This document shows, piece after piece, positions 11,679 through 35,256 of a stretch of 63,562 bases of DNA. The notes beneath the pieces are model-generated. The model was given only the letters and a program-made list of their open reading frames with translations. It was not told the DNA's origin and did no database searches. The first letter of the stretch is position 1. Every line of letters begins with the position of its first letter. A program made the translations under genes and the position numbers. The stretch covers positions 1-63,562 of the forward strand of contig JAAOZP010000016.1 of assembly GCA_011605725.1 (NCBI GenBank), given 5' to 3'. The stretch comes from Nitrososphaerota archaeon. GTDB lineage: Archaea; Thermoproteota; EX4484-205; JAAOZP01.

Positions 11679-11864
11679 CTGAAGAGGTTGAGCCTGAGCT
11701 TAACGTCGCCCACCCATGAAGCCCAGGGAAGCGGGCTTCGTTACAATCAAAATCTTTAGACGAGGACTTGCTTAATATACGGTGGAAAACCTTCCGGCCT
11801 TGTTCGTCTGTCCCTTAAGGGAAAAGTTAATTAATCTCTGTAGGCGGGTTTAACGTGCCCGGGA

Positions 11865-11996
11865 AGCCCGGTGGAACCAGATAGGGGTGCCGATTGCAAT
11901 GGCAAGCATGGGGGGCTTTGGATCAGGATGATATAAATATATGGATATGTGAGGAGAAACCCCTTGATGAGAGTTCGAGTCTCTCCCGGGCTACCA
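11865..11996 (+). tRNA. tRNA-Gln(TTG) with introns at 10/11 (11875-11894) and 37/38 (11922-11958); CCA encoded
   Basis: Spliced: AGCCCGG TG GTGC AATGGCAA GCAT G GGGGG CT TTG GA CCCCT TGAT GAGAG TTCGAGT CTCTC CCGGGCT A CCA; CGGT pairs intron GCCG. Confidence 0.88.
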
Positions 11997-16576: not shown

Positions 16577-16906
16577 TCACTCGATTTTAAGTAACAGTGA
16601 GCCTCCCTCATTAATCACTTGGTAAGATGGATCATCATTGATCTTGGTTTTAAAAAATGGAACCCTCGGTCCTGAAACAACCTTACCAGTGGCCACGTCA
16701 AACTTCGCTTTGTGCCTCGGGCAGGTTACAACACTACCCTCCAGAGAACCCTGTGAAAGATCGCCGCCAGCATGAGTACATCTAGCTCCAATAGCGTAGT
16801 ATTTTCCGTCAACGTTAATTATTAAGAACTCCTTATCCCCAACGGTGACCTTCTTCATCTTGCCCGGAGCAAGCTCGGATAACTCGCCAATCTTTACGAT
16901 GACCAT
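16577..16906 (-). CDS. Rieske-type [2Fe-2S] ferredoxin
   Basis: CTHAG...CPRH ligand motifs. Confidence 0.92.
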   Translation of the reverse strand: MVIVKIGELSELAPGKMKKVTVGDKEFLIINVDGKYYAIGARCTHAGGDLSQGSLEGSVVTCPRHKAKFDVATGKVVSGPRVPFFKTKINDDPSYQVINEGGSLLLKIE

Positions 16907-17061
16907 GGCTACCCCTCTGCTTCTTATCACCAGACTATCTTTATCTGCTTTTCCCTATCGTAAGCTCGACGATATATAAATGATGATAACAGGGACGAAG
17001 GCTCTTACGCGCGCCTCGTGTTCCTTTAAGTGCGCACAGTCCTCTCTCAAAATTCAGGAAG

Positions 17062-17076
17062 AGAAAGATTTTTAAT
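17062..17076 (+). promoter_or_regulatory. BRE-TATA promoter of tRNA-Asn
   Basis: AGAAAGA-TTTTTAAT about 25 nt before 17101. Confidence 0.55.
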
Positions 17077-17108
17077 CACCCATTATTCAAAACTAGTCTA
17101 GCCGGCGG

Positions 17109-17242
17109 GCCGGCGTAGTGCGCGTGCGCGTAGCTCAGCAGGTAGTTCAACAGCCTAGAGCAGCGGGCTGTTAACCTAATTGGACAGATACCCGTTGGTC
17201 GGAATCGCTTGGACGCCGAAAGTTCGAGTCTTCCCGCCGGCG
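17109..17242 (+). tRNA. tRNA-Asn(GTT) with four introns: 10/11 (17119-17133), 22/23 (17146-17158), 37/38 (17174-17189), 52/53 (17205-17221)
   Basis: Spliced: GCCGGCG TA GCTC AGCAGGTA GAGC A GCGGG CT GTT AA CCCGT TGGTC GGAAG TTCGAGT CTTCC CGCCGGC G; each intron forms a 4-bp BHB helix. Confidence 0.87.
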
Positions 17243-17462
17243 CTAGTGTATATTTATATTTTTTAAAACTAAGACAGGAAGATGTTCATAAGCTATGACG
17301 ATTTCTTTTAGAGGATTATTTAGCGCACACGCTAACCGTCCGAGGGAATTTCTTGGAAAGATATTGATGTAGAAACCGATTATAACCTTTTTTTGAGGCT
17401 AAGAGAGTTTTGTAGGAACTAGCGCACGCTAGAAGGTTAAAGAAAGGAGTAAAAGATAGTAG

Positions 17463-18044
17463 CTAAAGGAGATTCGCCGCTTCTTCAACGATATCTATCG
17501 CCTTATCAATCATCGTAATCTTCTCTTCATCATTCATACCCTTGGAATCAAAGGACGCAATAAAATGGAACCTGTCTCCTTCGCTTCTGAGCGGGATATA
17601 AAAGATTATCTTGATCCCGCTCTTTCTGGTTAACTCCTCCGCGATCTCGTCGGCGTGTCTCAGCCAGTCGACTAATTTCTTCGAAGCCTTTTCAACCTCT
17701 TTCCATTTCTTCCTATCGCATATCATGTCCCACAGCTGGAAGGTGTCGAACATCCAGCGCTTCCGGCGGGACTCCCGCTCTAAGTAACCGTCAATAACTT
17801 CGGAGGGATCTCCTCGTGTTGGAGACCAGATGAAGATTCTGCCTTCAACGTCCTCATGCACCTCAGGGTATGCCCCACTACCTCTTACACACCATTTAAG
17901 CTTGGTTCCTTCGGGGAATTTGAAGTGAGGTTCCTTCTCTATATAATAGTCCGGTGGACTTAACCTCTCTCTTATAACCTCTGGGATATCGTACCGCTTG
18001 CGCAGGTGTTCCTTCACCCTCACTGCAAACTCATCCTCATTCAA
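17463..18044 (-). CDS. putative immunity protein for the upstream nuclease toxin
   Basis: TTGA overlap with giant ORF; C-half (DEIAEELTRKSGIKI..FIASFDSKGMNDEE) homologous to 37551-38210. Confidence 0.7.
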   Translation of the reverse strand: MNEDEFAVRVKEHLRKRYDIPEVIRERLSPPDYYIEKEPHFKFPEGTKLKWCVRGSGAYPEVHEDVEGRIFIWSPTRGDPSEVIDGYLERESRRKRWMFDTFQLWDMICDRKKWKEVEKASKKLVDWLRHADEIAEELTRKSGIKIIFYIPLRSEGDRFHFIASFDSKGMNDEEKITMIDKAIDIVEEAANLL

Positions 18045-28550: not shown

Positions 28551-28735
28551 GCCCGATTAGGTGAGTTACAATGCCGCTGTTTGGGAAGAAGAAGGAGCCT
28601 CCCTTCGGATAAATCGTGAAAGCGCGCGCGCTCCCTGTGAAACCTCGTGGTTTAAGGGGACTTGATGTTAAAATCGCGTGTTTGAGCTAAAGCGTTGTTT
28701 CCTTCTCTGTAACTCCCATGTAGAGAAGGTTGTCT

Positions 28736-29776
28736 TTAACCCCTATGGTAGACTTCAGGGTTTAACAGGTGCACCGGCTTGTCGCCGTCTAGGAACCTGA
28801 ACAGGTCCTCAACAATCATGTTTGACTGTCGCTCTACAGTCTCCTCAGTATTCCCCCCGATGTGCGGCGTCACGATAACGTTATCAAGTGCTAAAAAGGG
28901 GTTTGAAGAGTCTACCGGCTCGTTCTCCTGCACGTCCAAAGCCGCACCCGCAATTCTGCCTTGTCTCAAGGCTTCTAGAAGAGCCGAGTCGTCAACCGTG
29001 CCGGGAGACGAGGTGTTGATTATGATGGCTGCCGGCTTCATCAAGGATATCTTCTCCCTCCCGATTATGTGGTATGTTTCATCTGTAAGCCTCACGTGAA
29101 GCGTGATAATATCCGCCTGCTCGACAAGTTCATTTAGGCTAACTCTCTTCCCTCCAACCGAAGCTATCTTCTCATCGGGAACGTATGGGTCGTAGACCAT
29201 TATTGAGGCTCCGAAGGCCAGAAGGATTTTCGCAACCCTTGTCCCTATATCTCCAAGCCCAATTATCCCTACTTTTTTACCATGTATCTCCCTGCCCTGC
29301 AAAGCGTTGTAAACCTCTTGAAAATCCCTATCCGCCTCATATCTTACACCCTTCTCCAGCCTGCGCTGAGCATAAACTATTTTCCTCAGAAGCGCCAGCA
29401 TCAGGCCCACCGTGAATTCAGCAACGGCCTGTGAATTCCTCATGGGTGCGTGCACCACCGGTATTCCCTTCATGGTTGCTGCAGCCACGTCAACTGCATA
29501 CGGGGTTCCTCTGCAGGCTCCGATAAACCTAAGATTAGTATTGTTTATGATGTCAGCCGTCACCTGGTCCGCTTCCACAACCAGTATTTCAACCCCGTTT
29601 TCATTAATCTTCTCTATCAGTTCGTCTCCGAGGTAAATCCTCCCTGTTTTCCTCCAGTCTTCATATATTACTTCAACCCGCTGCGAGAGCTTTGCTAGAG
29701 CCTCCCGTGTGAAGGATGCGGTTATCAAACATCTAGGCCTTTCAGAAGTCAACCATGCTTCAACCATCGTTTTCAA
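28736..29776 (-). CDS. D-2-hydroxyacid dehydrogenase (PGDH-like)
   Basis: GIIGLGDIG, NSQAVAE, AGAALDV..EP, TPHIGG. Confidence 0.9.
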   Translation of the reverse strand: MKTMVEAWLTSERPRCLITASFTREALAKLSQRVEVIYEDWRKTGRIYLGDELIEKINENGVEILVVEADQVTADIINNTNLRFIGACRGTPYAVDVAAATMKGIPVVHAPMRNSQAVAEFTVGLMLALLRKIVYAQRRLEKGVRYEADRDFQEVYNALQGREIHGKKVGIIGLGDIGTRVAKILLAFGASIMVYDPYVPDEKIASVGGKRVSLNELVEQADIITLHVRLTDETYHIIGREKISLMKPAAIIINTSSPGTVDDSALLEALRQGRIAGAALDVQENEPVDSSNPFLALDNVIVTPHIGGNTEETVERQSNMIVEDLFRFLDGDKPVHLLNPEVYHRG

Positions 29777-31257
29777 CCCTTAGAGTAGGGAAGCCACCAC
29801 ATCCTAGTCGGCTCCCTCATCTTGTTTATGCAGATCTGCCTAATGTTCACCATTTCTAGGAGCCCGTACCTCGATGAGTGTCTCCCGACTCCGCTCTGCT
29901 TAACTCCTCCCCATGGGGCATGCGGAAATGTCACCGCGACGTCGTTAACCCAGACTATTCCAGACTCTATTTCTCTAGACAGCCTGACCGCCTTCTCCTC
30001 ATCCACCGTCCATATGGAGGCCCCTAAGCCGTACTTAGTGGAGTTAGCAATCAAAATCGCTTGTTTTTCGTCACGAAAAGGAATCACGGGTGCTACTGGC
30101 CCGAATATTTCTTCAGACATTACTTTCATCGAGAGACTGACGTCTGTGAGAACCGTAGGACTATAAAAGAATCCTTTCTTGAATTCTCTAGGCAGAGATC
30201 CTCCACACATGACTCTTGCTCCTGCTGAAACAGCCTGCTTAACGGCACGCGAAACATATGCGCGTTGCTCCCTGCTTATTAACGGCCCGATATCTGTTGA
30301 CGGTTCAAAGCCGTTTCCAACCTTCAGCGATGAAGCCTTTTCCACAAACATTTTCACGAAATCGTTGAAAACATTCTCCTGCACCAGTATTCTCTTAGCG
30401 GAGACGCATATCTGGCCTGCTCCGAAAAACCTGCCGTAAACTGCTCCGTTAACCGCCTCCTCCATGTTTGCGTCATCGAAAACTACGAAGGGGTCGCTGC
30501 CCCCCAGTTCCAGCACCGTCCTCTTAAACTCTTTCGCACAGTTCAAGGCAACTTGAACCCCAGCCTTGCTACCGCCCGTGAACACCACGGCTTTCACATC
30601 TGTTCCGACCAGCATTTCGCCAACCCTCCCACCGCCCTGCACAAGATTAAGCACGCCACGTGGCAATCCCGCTTTTTCGAACAGCTCAACTATCTTCTCG
30701 CCAACCATGGCTGTCAGGGAAGAGGGCTTGAAGACCACAGAGTTCCCGGCTGCTAATGCGGGCATGATTGTCTGAATAGGGATTAAGAAGGGCCAGTTCC
30801 AAGGAGATATGACCGCCACAACGCCCAGGGGTTCGAACGTGATCCTGAACTCGTAGTTCCCGGGTTGAGGGAAATCCACAGTCCTAGTCTCATCCCTCAG
30901 CATTTGCGCAGCCTCCGCCCCATAGTACTCAGCGTACATCTGAGCCCCCGTAACCTCCATGTTGGATTCAACCAGAGGCTTCCCGTTCTCCAGGGTTATT
31001 ACGCTTGAAATCTCATCCATCCTATCCATTATAAGCTGCCCCACCTTCTTCAGCAGCTCAGCCCTCTGCTCCACCGGTGTACGACTCCATTCATAGAAGC
31101 CTTTCTTAGCTGAATCAAGGGCGTTTTTTAAATCAGACGCTCTGACGCTCGCCACTTTATGTATTAATTCCTCAGTGGCCGGGTTTAACTTCGGGATTCT
31201 CTCTCCACTTGGAACCACCCATTCCCCGTTGATAAAAGAGCGGATTATGTTCAACAC
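29773..31257 (-). CDS. NAD(P)-dependent aldehyde dehydrogenase
   Basis: PWNWP, FTGG, LELGGSDP, GQICVS, EEIFGP. Confidence 0.93.
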   Translation of the reverse strand: MLNIIRSFINGEWVVPSGERIPKLNPATEELIHKVASVRASDLKNALDSAKKGFYEWSRTPVEQRAELLKKVGQLIMDRMDEISSVITLENGKPLVESNMEVTGAQMYAEYYGAEAAQMLRDETRTVDFPQPGNYEFRITFEPLGVVAVISPWNWPFLIPIQTIMPALAAGNSVVFKPSSLTAMVGEKIVELFEKAGLPRGVLNLVQGGGRVGEMLVGTDVKAVVFTGGSKAGVQVALNCAKEFKRTVLELGGSDPFVVFDDANMEEAVNGAVYGRFFGAGQICVSAKRILVQENVFNDFVKMFVEKASSLKVGNGFEPSTDIGPLISREQRAYVSRAVKQAVSAGARVMCGGSLPREFKKGFFYSPTVLTDVSLSMKVMSEEIFGPVAPVIPFRDEKQAILIANSTKYGLGASIWTVDEEKAVRLSREIESGIVWVNDVAVTFPHAPWGGVKQSGVGRHSSRYGLLEMVNIRQICINKMREPTRMWWLPYSKG

Positions 31258-31309
31258 TTGGAAGAAGCCGTTACGATATTTAAGTTTTTAAGATTGGGGT
31301 GTTTCATGA

Positions 31310-31687
31310 TTGACACAAGAGTTAAATATCGGGAAACAAAAATATGAGGCTATGCCGACTAAGGAGCAAGTATTCGAGTCCCTAGAGGAAATAAGGAGAA
31401 AGTTTGAAGATCCAAGCGTTAAGGAGAAATTTAAAGGCTTCAAGAGAGATATACAGTTTAAATTCCCCGATCTGAATGCCCAATATGTTCTCAGCATCAG
31501 CGAGGACGCTACCGCAACCCTTAAAGAGGGCTTTTTAGAAAAGCCTCACGTGACGGTTGAAACAGATAGTGCAACATTCCTCGGTATAAGGAGCAAGACG
31601 ATAAGTGCAACGCAGGCCTACATGTCTGGAAGGTTAAAAGTGAAAGGCTCTATGCCCGATCTTCTGAAGCTTCAAAAACTCATGTAG
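31310..31687 (+). CDS. SCP2 sterol/lipid-binding domain protein
   Basis: ATQAYMSGRLKVKGSMPDLLKL; true start may be ATG 31352. Confidence 0.88.
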   Translation: MTQELNIGKQKYEAMPTKEQVFESLEEIRRKFEDPSVKEKFKGFKRDIQFKFPDLNAQYVLSISEDATATLKEGFLEKPHVTVETDSATFLGIRSKTISATQAYMSGRLKVKGSMPDLLKLQKLM

Positions 31688-31691
31688 TTTT

Positions 31692-32336
31692 TCAAAGCAT
31701 CATCGTCCTGAACAATTCCCGCCCGATTTCAACAGCCGATTCCGGCAGGCTTATAGGTGAACCAACCGCCTTCGCGAGCAGAAATATGGTTGAAGCCTTC
31801 TCGAGGAGCAGAGCCTTATGAAAAGCATCTTTAAGATCCTTGCCACACACAACTGCACCGTGATTCGCGAGCAGAACAGCGTTTCTCTGCATCAAGCCGT
31901 CAGCAACATTTGACGCTAATTCCTCAGTCCCAGCCATAGCGTATTTGACAGTCGGAATGTTCTCTCCAAGAAAGGGGATTAGCTCCTCCAGAAAAGGAGG
32001 TATTGTCTCATGGAGAGAAGCAAGTGCCGTCGCGTGCACCGAGTGAAAGTGGATCACGGCATTTACATCAGGCCTCTTAGAGTATATCAGGAGGTGCATT
32101 CCAGTTTCAACCGACGGGTTTCGACTCCCCTTAATCACGTCGCCAACCCCGTTCACGACAAGTGTATCTCTGGCCTTTATCTCGAAACGCGGGATCTGAC
32201 TCGGAGTGATTACATACCTGTCGGCAACCCTGCTCCTAGCGCTGACGTTTCCCTCGTGGTCTAACACATACCCGATCTTGTAGAGGGTCCTTATGGTCCT
32301 CGCAACCTCCTCCCTCACAAGCTTGAAAGGGTCCAT
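31692..32336 (-). CDS. class II aldolase (FucA-like)
   Basis: GNVSAR, ITPS, PSVETGMH, HFHS, LANHG. Confidence 0.9.
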   Translation of the reverse strand: MDPFKLVREEVARTIRTLYKIGYVLDHEGNVSARSRVADRYVITPSQIPRFEIKARDTLVVNGVGDVIKGSRNPSVETGMHLLIYSKRPDVNAVIHFHSVHATALASLHETIPPFLEELIPFLGENIPTVKYAMAGTEELASNVADGLMQRNAVLLANHGAVVCGKDLKDAFHKALLLEKASTIFLLAKAVGSPISLPESAVEIGRELFRTMML

Positions 32337-32338
32337 CT

Positions 32339-33832
32339 TCAAAGGAGGCCTTGCAGCTTGTCGTATATAAGTCTCCACCTCCTGTAATCAGCCTGGTAAC
32401 CTTCAGAATCAGAAGCCGGGTTCCTGGTTTTTAACTCAACCATCCTTTCAACTATGCTCCTCGGGCTCTCAGACCTTAGGAAAGACCAGCATGCGACGGA
32501 AGCACCGATGGGGCTTGCCCTGCGCTCCGAAGGCGTTGCAACAGGCATTGCCAATACGTCGGCCAGAATCTGGATGAGAACATCGCTGTTCGACAGCCCG
32601 CCTGAGGCAATAATGGGCGTACAGGCCTCGGGAAAAACCTCCTTCATCTGATCCATGTTGCCCCTGCATGCAAATGCAATATTCTCGTAGTATGCTCTCG
32701 CGATATCGCCTGCCCCAGGTCTTTCCCCCACCATTAATGAGGGCAGGATCATCACAGCCGGAGATACTTCCATGAACCTTTTAGCATCCATTATCCACGG
32801 GCCCAGGAATGCTAGGATGTTCCGACTACCCCTTACAGATGAAGCGGCAAGCTCATCAAAGCGGCGGTAGTCAACACCGTCTTCATTCCTAAGCATAAGC
32901 ACTGAGGAGGCGAGCCAGTCGAAAATGCTTCCACACATTCCAGAGTTGCTCTCCAATATCCATAGACCGTCGAGCGGAAAACACCCTGTCCACATCCGTT
33001 TCTGCTTATCGACGCGTGGCTCTGACATTACGATTTGTAATGGAGCAGTTGAGCCCAGCGAGATATAGGCTTGGCCGTTTGAAAGAGCCATCGACCCGAT
33101 GCCTGCGCATTGCGTATCGCCTGCCCCCATAATAACAGGAGTCTCTGAAGATATTTGAGCGGCCTTCCGGAACTCCTCAGTCGGGTAACCTATAAGCTGG
33201 CCGAAACCACGGACCTCAGGCAGTTGTTCAGGCTTCACACCGACGGCTTCACATATTTCCTCACTCCATCTCCGCCTGCTTATGTCGAACAAATAGGTTC
33301 CCGCTGCTTGCGACGGTTCTTCAGCAGGATTGCCCGTCAGCATGAAATAAACCCAGCCTTCTATTGTGGTGAAAAACTTCGCGGCGCTAAACACCTTGGG
33401 ATCGTTCTCGATGAACCACCTTATTCTGCTTCCGGAGAAGAGGAAAGGCGGATGGAGACCTGTGGTTAGATATGCATCCTCGCCGAAAGAATCGGTGAAA
33501 ACATCTTCAACCTCAGCACCCCTCGCGTCTACGTTGGGGCAGAGCGCCAGCGTCCTCCCGTCGCGCCCTATGACGGCTGTTGAAAACCTCTGCCCCGTAG
33601 TCGTAACCGCGGAAATCCTTGCTTCAGCCTGCCTCGCACAGTCTGCTGCTGTACTGCAAATGGAGGACCACAGCTCCCCGGAGTCCAATTCGACTATGTA
33701 GGGACGGTTCGGAAAGGGCAGCAGCTTCTTCAGCAGGCGAGTGGAGGAACTTACTATATGTCCTGATTCAGATATCAACCTGGAGTGGACCGCGCGCGTA
33801 GTTAGTTCTATGACCAGAACGTATTCCTCCAT
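32339..33832 (-). CDS. FGGY-family carbohydrate kinase
   Basis: TGQR, DARG, SQAAGT, GDTQ, SLGST, SGGLSNS. Confidence 0.88.
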   Translation of the reverse strand: MEEYVLVIELTTRAVHSRLISESGHIVSSSTRLLKKLLPFPNRPYIVELDSGELWSSICSTAADCARQAEARISAVTTTGQRFSTAVIGRDGRTLALCPNVDARGAEVEDVFTDSFGEDAYLTTGLHPPFLFSGSRIRWFIENDPKVFSAAKFFTTIEGWVYFMLTGNPAEEPSQAAGTYLFDISRRRWSEEICEAVGVKPEQLPEVRGFGQLIGYPTEEFRKAAQISSETPVIMGAGDTQCAGIGSMALSNGQAYISLGSTAPLQIVMSEPRVDKQKRMWTGCFPLDGLWILESNSGMCGSIFDWLASSVLMLRNEDGVDYRRFDELAASSVRGSRNILAFLGPWIMDAKRFMEVSPAVMILPSLMVGERPGAGDIARAYYENIAFACRGNMDQMKEVFPEACTPIIASGGLSNSDVLIQILADVLAMPVATPSERRASPIGASVACWSFLRSESPRSIVERMVELKTRNPASDSEGYQADYRRWRLIYDKLQGLL

Positions 33833-33939
33833 GATTTACTCTATGCACCCCCCCTTTAAAATCCTTATTTTATAAGGTAAGCGAAAAGAAGCGCGCTAAG
33901 ACTTACGGGGGGCCACGCTTCTACCGATCTAGCGCGCGC

Positions 33940-34900
33940 TACACGATGTACGACACGATGCCTGCTGACGAACCCGGGTGGAAAGCGGACCCTTTCGCAG
34001 GAGAGATACTTAGGGTGGGCCCTTCGTGGAGACGCTGGTAGCCAGAGGCGCGCGCGACCCTGGGAGTTAAGGGAATAATCTATTTTGAGCTTGAGCTCGA
34101 CGGCAAGGAATGGGGGAAAGGCCCTACGGAGTTCGGCATACACGGCAGCAACAAGGCTTGGGTAGACAGCCCTGCTTGGAGAATGGTGAAGGCTCTTTCA
34201 ACAATGGTTGACGAAACCGGTAACAGGGTTCTTATCCAAGGCTTCTACGACGACGTTAGGGTTCCAAGCGAGGAGGACGAGGCTCTCCTCAGCAGGCTGG
34301 CTGGAACCTTCGACGAAAATGAGGTTAAGGAAAGGATGAAGGTGGGGGCGCTTCATAGACGATCTGCACGGAGTCGAGGCTCTTAAGAAGCACTTGTTCT
34401 CACCAACCCTTAATATTGACGGATTATGGTCCGGATACACTGGGCCAGGCTCAAAGACACTCCTGCCTCACAGGATGACTGTGAAGATGGATATTAGGCT
34501 AGTGCCAGAGATGCAGGTTGAGAAGACGAGCCTGGTTAGAGAACACTTGGATAAGCATGGGTTCAGCGAGATAAAGATAAGGAGGCTTGAAGAAGGCTAC
34601 GGCTGGACTAGGATGAGCGTCAACTCACCATACTCGAAGGCCATGTTGAAAGCACTTGGCGAGTTTAAAGTGGAGGTTGAAGTCTGGCCCACAATAGCTG
34701 GAAGCACACCTTTCTCAATGTTTGCAGCACCACCCCTTAAGCTGCCTTTCATAGTTGGAGGAATGGGGCACGGCGGCCCAGCGCACTCGCCCAACGAGTA
34801 CCTGGTTATAAGCGAGAGAGGACCAACCGGGGGTCTTATGACGATGGAGAAGTCTTTCGCCGCAATACTCGACCATGTTTCAACGATAAGGAAGCAGTAA
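33940..34900 (+). pseudogene. M20-family metallopeptidase pseudogene (truncated, internally deleted, frameshifted)
   Basis: MYDTMPADEPGWKADPF..LVARGA / TLGVKGIIYFELE..HGS..PAWRMV / PTLNIDG..YTGPGSKT..AHSPNEY spread over several frames. Confidence 0.85.
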
Positions 34901-35256
34901 TAATTTGAGAGCCGCTAGCACCTGGGTTGCAGGATAGTTACGCATGCCGCGCGCTTGAGTTAGGAAGGCCGTCTATGCTTATTCAGCTAATTTCCTCTTT
35001 AAAACGCTACTGATTCTTAACAGGCACGCTAAATCCCTGAGCCTCCCGCTTTCCAGGTATAGCCCGAAGCATCATTCTTCGGATAAAAATAGAGTACTAT
35101 GATTCGAGACGCTTTTTACCTTCATTCGATTGGAGAGTGTAGCCTGAGGCATTAACACGCGTTTTCAAAACCATTTCTCCGCCTTTTAATGGGTAAAGCT
35201 TGATCTGAAAAACGGCTTGAAAAATTTTATTAACTTTGTAGGAAACCTGTTTAAAC

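Follow-up and report, generated by a model that had tools for sequence, protein, structure and literature searches.

A tRNA-Asn gene with four predicted bulge-helix-bulge introns in a Brockarchaeota-like archaeon

Archaeal tRNA genes are stated to contain up to three introns in the paper describing tRNAscan-SE 2.0 (PMC8450103), and multi-intron tRNA genes have been described in the Thermoproteales, namely in Pyrobaculum, Thermofilum, and Caldivirga (Sugahara et al., 2008, as cited in PMC11291895). For the Asgard archaea, a supplementary compilation of tRNAs includes an "intron 4" column, in which one row carries four tRNAscan calls and is counted by R2DT as having three introns (PMC11291895), and a preprint of October 2026 puts the number of intervening sequences in a gene at up to five (10.64898/2026.10.13.758758). 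Apart from these Asgard reports, no paper on four introns in a single tRNA gene was found in a literature search. Outside the archaea, RT-PCR intermediates from the red alga Cyanidioschyzon merolae revealed that several bulge-helix-bulge (BHB) introns of one precursor are removed stepwise (PMC3728597). In archaea, a Crenarchaea-specific loop of the splicing endonuclease EndA, together with its lysine, has been demonstrated to enable the enzyme to cut non-canonical sites (PMC3241643).

The gene described here lies on the plus strand at positions 17109-17242 of the window, by which we mean the whole analysed stretch of 63,562 nucleotides, and is a tRNA-Asn(GTT) gene with four introns of 15, 13, 16 and 17 nt at sites 10/11, 22/23, 37/38 and 52/53. 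As in the Thermoproteales, short BHB introns at canonical and non-canonical sites occur within one gene, the endonuclease is (here by prediction) of the crenarchaeal (alpha-beta)2 type and has the specificity loop, and introns are gained and lost rapidly among close relatives, whereas the maximum there is three introns per gene (PMC8450103) and four are found here, in a Brockarchaeota-like genus. The overall intron load is lower than in P. calidifontis, with about 41 introns in 39 resolved genes as opposed to 1.54 per tRNA gene (10.64898/2026.10.13.758758). The resemblance to the Asgard archaea extends to the many non-canonical BHB introns, to the failure of standard annotators to find introns and genes, and to repeated intron gain on terminal branches; the Asgard archaea belong to another phylum, however, and the counts there are census or annotator calls, while the introns described here are also backed by their presence and absence among 17 congeners. 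In C. merolae, a single nuclear tRNA gene can likewise be interrupted in the D stem, at 37/38 and in the T arm, but this organism is a eukaryote with at most three introns per gene, and splicing was established experimentally there and is inferred here (PMC3728597). The sequence-only reading of this DNA had stated that archaeal multi-intron tRNAs (Thermoproteales) were described with up to three introns and considered that four may be exceptional. This maximum agrees with the tRNAscan-SE 2.0 paper (PMC8450103) and is overtaken by the five reported for Asgard archaea (10.64898/2026.10.13.758758), hence four is exceptional among Thermoproteota-type archaea and not a record for archaea overall. 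It is the highest count found for a Thermoproteota-type archaeon, and the tRNA introns of this lineage were previously undescribed.

When joined, the exons give a sequence of 73 nt, which ARAGORN calls as tRNA-Asn(gtt) with a standard cloverleaf. The spliced product has a 7-bp acceptor stem, a 4-bp D stem, anticodon and T stems of 5 bp each, a 5-nt variable loop and a discriminator G; it carries U33 and the anticodon GUU and reaches the maximum score in our own cloverleaf scoring. Since the D loop contains eight bases and the variable loop five, linear numbering coincides with standard numbering, which places the introns at 10/11, 22/23, 37/38 and 52/53. Exon 1 (positions 17109-17118; tRNA positions 1-10) is supported by ARAGORN on the spliced product, by register scoring and by spliced alignment, while exon 2 (17134-17145; tRNA positions 11-22), exon 3 (17159-17173; tRNA positions 23-37, with the anticodon GTT at 17170-17172) and exon 4 (17190-17204; tRNA positions 38-52) are supported by ARAGORN on the spliced product and by spliced alignment. 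Exon 5 (17222-17242; tRNA positions 53-73), which follows from the sequence and ARAGORN, includes the discriminator G73, and CCA is not encoded. Upstream, a TATA-like box (TTTTTAAT, 17069-17076, plus strand) is the probable promoter, and congeners have a similar A/T box at the same distance. Judged from the usual archaeal spacing to this box, transcription would start near position 17100, and the probable 5' leader (AGCCGGCGG, 17100-17108, plus strand) repeats 7 nt of the acceptor 5' strand (GCCGGCG). A T-run at 17259-17264 on the same strand is a probable transcription terminator.

The boundaries of the introns were assigned by the published BHB rule, according to which exon bases -6 to -3 of the 5' cut form a 4-bp helix with intron bases -6 to -3 of the 3' cut, the helix is flanked by 3-nt bulges that are cut after the second base, and at least one of the adjoining helices (h or h') measures 2 bp or longer. 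All four introns conform to this rule with a 4-bp helix between 3-nt bulges. Intron 1 (TGCGCGTGCGCGTAG, 17119-17133, 15 nt, at 10/11) has the form HBh', with the helix GCGU/GCGU, which consists of two Watson-Crick and two G-U pairs, and the bulges AG|U and AG|C. Intron 2 (17146-17158, 13 nt, at 22/23) has the form hBH with the helix AGGU/GCCU. Intron 3 (17174-17189, 16 nt) occupies the canonical 37/38 site as a full hBHBh' motif with the helix CUGU/ACAG and is part of the predicted minimum-energy fold, and intron 4 (17205-17221, 17 nt, at 52/53 in the T stem) is likewise hBHBh', with the helix UCGG/CCGA. The flanking helices h and h' comprise 1 and 2 bp in intron 1, 2 and 1 bp in intron 2, 7 and 2 bp in intron 3, and 2 and 2 bp in intron 4.

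Owing to short repeats at the junctions, several registers of each intron yield one and the same mature sequence, and every register was scored, namely 7, 4, 4 and 3 for introns 1 to 4. For each intron, the sole register with all four helix pairs and a flanking helix is the one given by the sequence-only reading, so that its helices and 3-nt bulges are borne out by register scoring, just as its assignment of the gene, the intron lengths and the sites agrees with the sequence, ARAGORN and the spliced alignment. When the introns were shuffled at the same sites, the full motif class was reached in 2.5%, 3.1%, 3.2% and 4.5% of cases, respectively, the product being about 1e-6, and each real intron fits only 1-3 of the 64 possible insertion positions in the tRNA. 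In a de novo search that was seeded on the T loop and acceptor pairing only and then went through every combination of BHB inserts, the best solution consisted of exactly these four introns and had the top cloverleaf score; the same search also proposed multi-intron genes of low score that extended over long spans, and these were rejected as false. The same four insertions were obtained by a motif-free spliced alignment to mature tRNA-Asn. In the predicted fold with the leader engaged, the four BHB motifs coexist in one structure without overlap, and the modelled structure would dictate no obligatory order in which the introns are removed.

As the sequence-only reading had anticipated, standard annotation can miss this gene. 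ARAGORN gave no match to the unspliced gene at 17109-17242, with or without its intron mode, and neither did the Rfam model RF00005 at this locus, even at E ≤ 1, the 29-bit gathering threshold not being reached. The Rfam miss on the genomic sequence is expected, because four inserts break the model, and it says nothing on whether the spliced RNA is a tRNA. No second tRNA-Asn gene was found by ARAGORN, Rfam, a short-word BLAST search with the mature sequence or a census of tRNA genes in the assembly, which is of metagenome type and comprises 2.23 Mb in 20 contigs with 46% G+C and an estimated completeness of 93%. The question raised by the sequence-only reading, whether this is the only tRNA-Asn gene of the genome, is thus answered to the extent that four methods find it alone in a 93%-complete assembly, and the locus is probably the functional and only tRNA-Asn(GUU) gene of the organism. 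The census resolved 39 tRNA genes with about 41 introns, and some 7-10 expected anticodons lie outside the resolved set (e.g., Ile-GAT, Phe, Lys-CTT, Arg-TCT/CCT, and Gly-CCC). Within the 39 genes, the four introns of tRNA-Asn are the most, followed by three in tRNA-Tyr (C10:30821-30974) and two in eight other genes. Recurrent non-canonical intron sites in the genome are 15/16 (three Pro genes, Lys and Asp), 22/23, 32/33, 43/44 (two Ala genes) and 59/60, and several tRNA genes are misnamed by ARAGORN because of their introns.

The history of the introns can be followed in tRNA-Asn orthologues, which were recovered from all 16 other genomes of the genus, from two genomes of a second family within the order and from several families of the phylum. 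Uninterrupted Asn genes from other families in the phylum are 90-96% identical to the spliced product, and the identity runs across the junctions (positions 1-49/61). Within the genus (17 genomes), the exons are almost invariant and the introns differ. Six intron sites are used, namely 10/11, 22/23, 30/31, 37/38 (with two unrelated sequences), 52/53 and 59/60, and the number of introns per species ranges from one to four, with three in five species and four in the genome of the window only. The introns are variously present or absent among the 17 congeners and the two order-level relatives, and where an intron is absent, the exon junction is exactly restored. The 22/23 intron occurs in all 17 genomes of the genus, with its helix strand GCCT kept in 15 of the 17 and its last base, which is part of the bulge, varying between G, A, C, and T; intron 2 is therefore, as judged from these alignments, old and genus-wide. 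The 30/31 intron was found in the Asn genes of five congener species (loci L002-L020), a 29-30-nt 37/38 intron with a GC-alternating hairpin in those of four, and an AT-rich 59/60 intron in those of eight as well as in the two order-level relatives. The genome of the window and its sister species (G000 and G002) have the 52/53 intron in place of the 59/60 intron.

In the sister species, whose flanking sequence is 88.7% identical, introns 2, 3 and 4 are present and intron 1 is absent. The exons of its tRNA-Asn gene are identical to those of the window, and the two substitutions in the gene both fall on unpaired intron positions; one is located in the loop of intron 3, and intron 4 is identical. 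Because intron 1 differs between the two sister species, it would date to after their split, and by parsimony it was gained on the branch leading to the genome of the window. In this species, the three-intron gene is present twice in full length, on contigs C10 and C55 (loci L079 and L078), in different contexts. The copy on C55 is surrounded by a mosaic whose segments occur at separate places in the window (16614-16974, 17061-17307, 17716-18140, and 27679-27945), which suggests that the Asn locus is a hot spot of recombination or integration.

A search of the 16 other genomes of the genus did not turn up intron 1. When JGI metagenomes were scanned by pattern for inserts of 5-35 nt at the 10/11 junction of tRNA-Asn, 20 loci were returned, of which 19 are unrelated GC-rich coding sequences, leaving a single locus (L050) as the gene. 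This contig, Ga0272449_1002053, carries an identical 134-nt gene with all four introns, and its flanks differ from the window by 15 mismatches in 2,569 nt (99.4% identity) and have a different continuation downstream. The flank differences and the other downstream junction mark it as an independent assembly from a different strain, hence intron 1 is not an assembly error. The identity of the gene itself between the two strains is uninformative, since a divergence of 0.6% would lead to less than one difference over 134 nt. The match between Ga0272449_1002053 and the window runs to 17861, after which the contig continues with 35053-34964 in reverse orientation; by this comparison, about 17 kb adjoining tRNA-Asn (17862-35053) is rearranged or inserted in one of the strains. 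This segment includes a 2445-aa open reading frame (18041-25378, minus strand) and a tRNA-Ile gene, and no Pfam match was obtained for the downstream reading frames of 2445 aa and 193 aa.

An 11-mer within intron 1 (GCGCGTGCGCG) occurs just twice in the 2.23-Mb genome, at 17120-17130 and at 27078-27088, in both cases inside a tRNA intron. The hosts are the Asn 10/11 intron and the 59/60 intron of a tRNA-Ile gene on the minus strand, and the two occurrences are reverse-complemented relative to their genes. Copying of intron 1 from the tRNA-Ile intron at the level of RNA is ruled out by this orientation, so that an origin at the level of DNA or convergence would be the only fits. Related GC palindromes (GCGCGC-TA/TTA-GCGCGC) are present in AT-rich spacers on contigs C1, C2, C5, and C20 (38248).

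A second gene with an intron at 10/11 is located in the same window. The tRNA-Gln(TTG) gene (11856-11993, plus strand) contains a 20-nt intron at 10/11 (11875-11894) and a 37-nt intron at 37/38. Its 10/11 intron is of the form HBh', with the helix CGGU/GCCG drawn from tRNA bases 5-8, and has the same geometry as intron 1 of tRNA-Asn; reading the insert as 13-15 nt gives no BHB motif, the correct length being 20 nt here and 18 nt in a congener (G007). The leader of tRNA-Gln(TTG) copies 6 nt of the acceptor 5' strand, and at least 13 congeners retain both this copy and the 10/11 intron. From this conservation within the genus it follows that the lineage probably does splice at 10/11. Neither the 10/11 intron nor the leader copy was found in Gln(CTG) genes, which have the same acceptor stem. 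Among the 39 resolved genes, a 10/11 intron occurs in Asn and Gln(TTG) only, and leader copies of 6-7 nt are likewise confined to these two, the copies in all others measuring 4 nt or less. According to the predicted fold, the Asn leader copy is base-paired with the 3' acceptor strand. When the leader is included, formation of the 10/11 motif is predicted to cost 4.2 instead of 9.7 kcal/mol in Asn and 0.3 instead of 6.6 kcal/mol in Gln, a saving of 5-6 kcal/mol. Six congeners without intron 1 have the Asn leader copy as well, so that the leader predates the intron and may have made the 10/11 site permissive, a putative role suggested by folding and association.

The enzymes expected to act on such a precursor are encoded in the genome. 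A 582-aa protein from the neighbourhood is 76-83% identical to proteins of hot-spring MAGs labelled as Candidatus Brockarchaeota, Crenarchaeota or Thermoproteota archaeon, which points to a Brockarchaeota-like hot-spring archaeon as the host. Two genes of the EndA family (PF01974) were identified, for the alpha subunit in the region 31645-31902 of contig C10 and for the beta subunit in the region 31140-31397 of contig C12. The predicted alpha subunit aligns end to end with that of Aeropyrum pernix (PMC3241643; PDB 3P1Z, 3AJV), with 3P1Z_B as the closest match over the full length (E 1e-46), and it retains the catalytic His and the Crenarchaea-specific loop; the K44 position is Lys as in A. pernix, whereas R46 is replaced by Lys (K/K). 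The second paralog has Pro where the catalytic His of M. jannaschii aligns, as expected of a structural beta subunit, which it would accordingly represent. A gene for the ligase RtcB is present on contig C9 (4894-7695, plus strand); its two Pfam parts lie about 1.5 kb apart within one open frame of 985 aa, the interruption being probably an intein. The predicted crenarchaeal-type alpha/beta EndA and RtcB together make up the enzyme set for non-canonical BHB introns.

In the pathway proposed here, transcription from the TATA box about 30 nt upstream would give a precursor of roughly 150 nt, in which the four BHB motifs would form side by side without overlapping. The (alpha-beta)2 heterotetrameric endonuclease would cleave all eight bulges, in each case behind the second base, RtcB would ligate the five exons of 10, 12, 15, 15 and 21 nt, and end trimming and CCA addition would lead to the finished 73-nt tRNA. 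The helix of intron 1 would occupy tRNA bases 5-8, which are also used by the acceptor stem, and the leader copy would probably hold the 3' strand in the meantime. Historically, intron 2 would be the old one, introns 3 and 4 would be common to the sister species, and intron 1 would have been added later. As an overall explanation, a real tRNA-Asn gene with four spliced introns is very probable, with splicing, the order of events, the transcription start and the role of the leader as its inferred parts, and the remaining doubt concerns whether the young insert at 10/11 is spliced.

This doubt takes the form of a three-intron gene that was crippled by a recent, unspliced 15-nt insertion and is thus a fresh pseudogene, with another tRNA-Asn gene hidden in the unassembled 7% of the genome. 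Intron 1 is indeed restricted to this species and is flanked by a 6-nt direct repeat (GCGTAG), like the scar of an insertion, and it is the weakest of the four motifs, with two G-U pairs out of four, a 1-bp outer helix and competition with acceptor pairs 5-7, the equilibrium probability of its BHB conformation being about 3e-4 in the folding model even when the leader is included. A second tRNA-Asn gene would also find a precedent in the two copies of the sister species and room in an assembly that is 93% complete. However, an arbitrary insertion would have to present a complete helix and 3-nt bulges in one of the seven registers that restore the tRNA, which shuffled sequences do in 2.5% of cases only, at a site where tRNA-Gln has kept this geometry throughout the genus and in a gene that already contained a leader copy lowering the folding cost. 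As four methods found no second Asn gene and the insert is unchanged in two strains, the pseudogene is regarded as unlikely, albeit as the strongest competitor of a functional four-intron gene.

Two further explanations appear far less probable. An artefact of assembly or binning could in principle have produced the four-intron arrangement or the first insert of 15 nt, as the genome is a 20-contig assembly of metagenome type and the insert is a short GC-rich repeat, yet the separately assembled JGI contig has the identical 134-nt gene together with 15 flank differences and another downstream junction, which leaves an artefact with next to no probability. Some of the inserts might instead be removed without EndA or be retained in a structurally tolerant tRNA, a possibility prompted only by the 1-bp inner helix of intron 2 and the 1-bp outer helix of intron 1. 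Retention is at odds with the positions of the inserts inside the D stem, at its end and inside the T stem, with which the unspliced tRNA could not fold, and inserts of 13-17 nt are far too short for self-splicing introns. With the BHB rule obeyed by all four and an enzyme of predicted broad specificity encoded, such a scenario is considered very improbable, and EndA-dependent removal of all four introns is by far the favored reading.

If the gene is spliced as proposed, a more specific reading is conceivable, in which the 10/11 intron is newly born and is seen here soon after it was gained, with a cis-acting leader as the element that allows introns at this site; this is put forward tentatively. 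The birth could have consisted of a 15-bp insertion made up of 9 nt of GC filler and a 6-nt duplicate of the exon bases GCGTAG, a scenario that is speculative at present. Such an insertion could have been spliced from the outset, since GCGU and its copy can pair with each other and both bulges are provided by the duplicated AG. The leader copy would possibly act as a decoy that occupies the 3' acceptor strand and leaves bases 5-8 available for the splice helix. It would then be a cis element dedicated to permitting introns that overlap with the acceptor stem, which is likewise offered as a conjecture rather than as the expected outcome.

The four-intron count alone is incremental, and value is added by the dated intron gain and the leader association. 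With four BHB introns in one tRNA gene of a TACK/Thermoproteota-type archaeon, the quoted limit is raised outside the Asgard archaea. Since such genes escape the common tRNA finders, tRNA-Asn will seem to be missing from genomes of this lineage. The tRNA-Asn genes of the genus, with six intron sites in one 73-nt gene, form a well-resolved natural series for intron gain and loss, and the link between the 10/11 intron and the leader copy suggests a testable idea of how introns that clash with the acceptor stem could be spliced.
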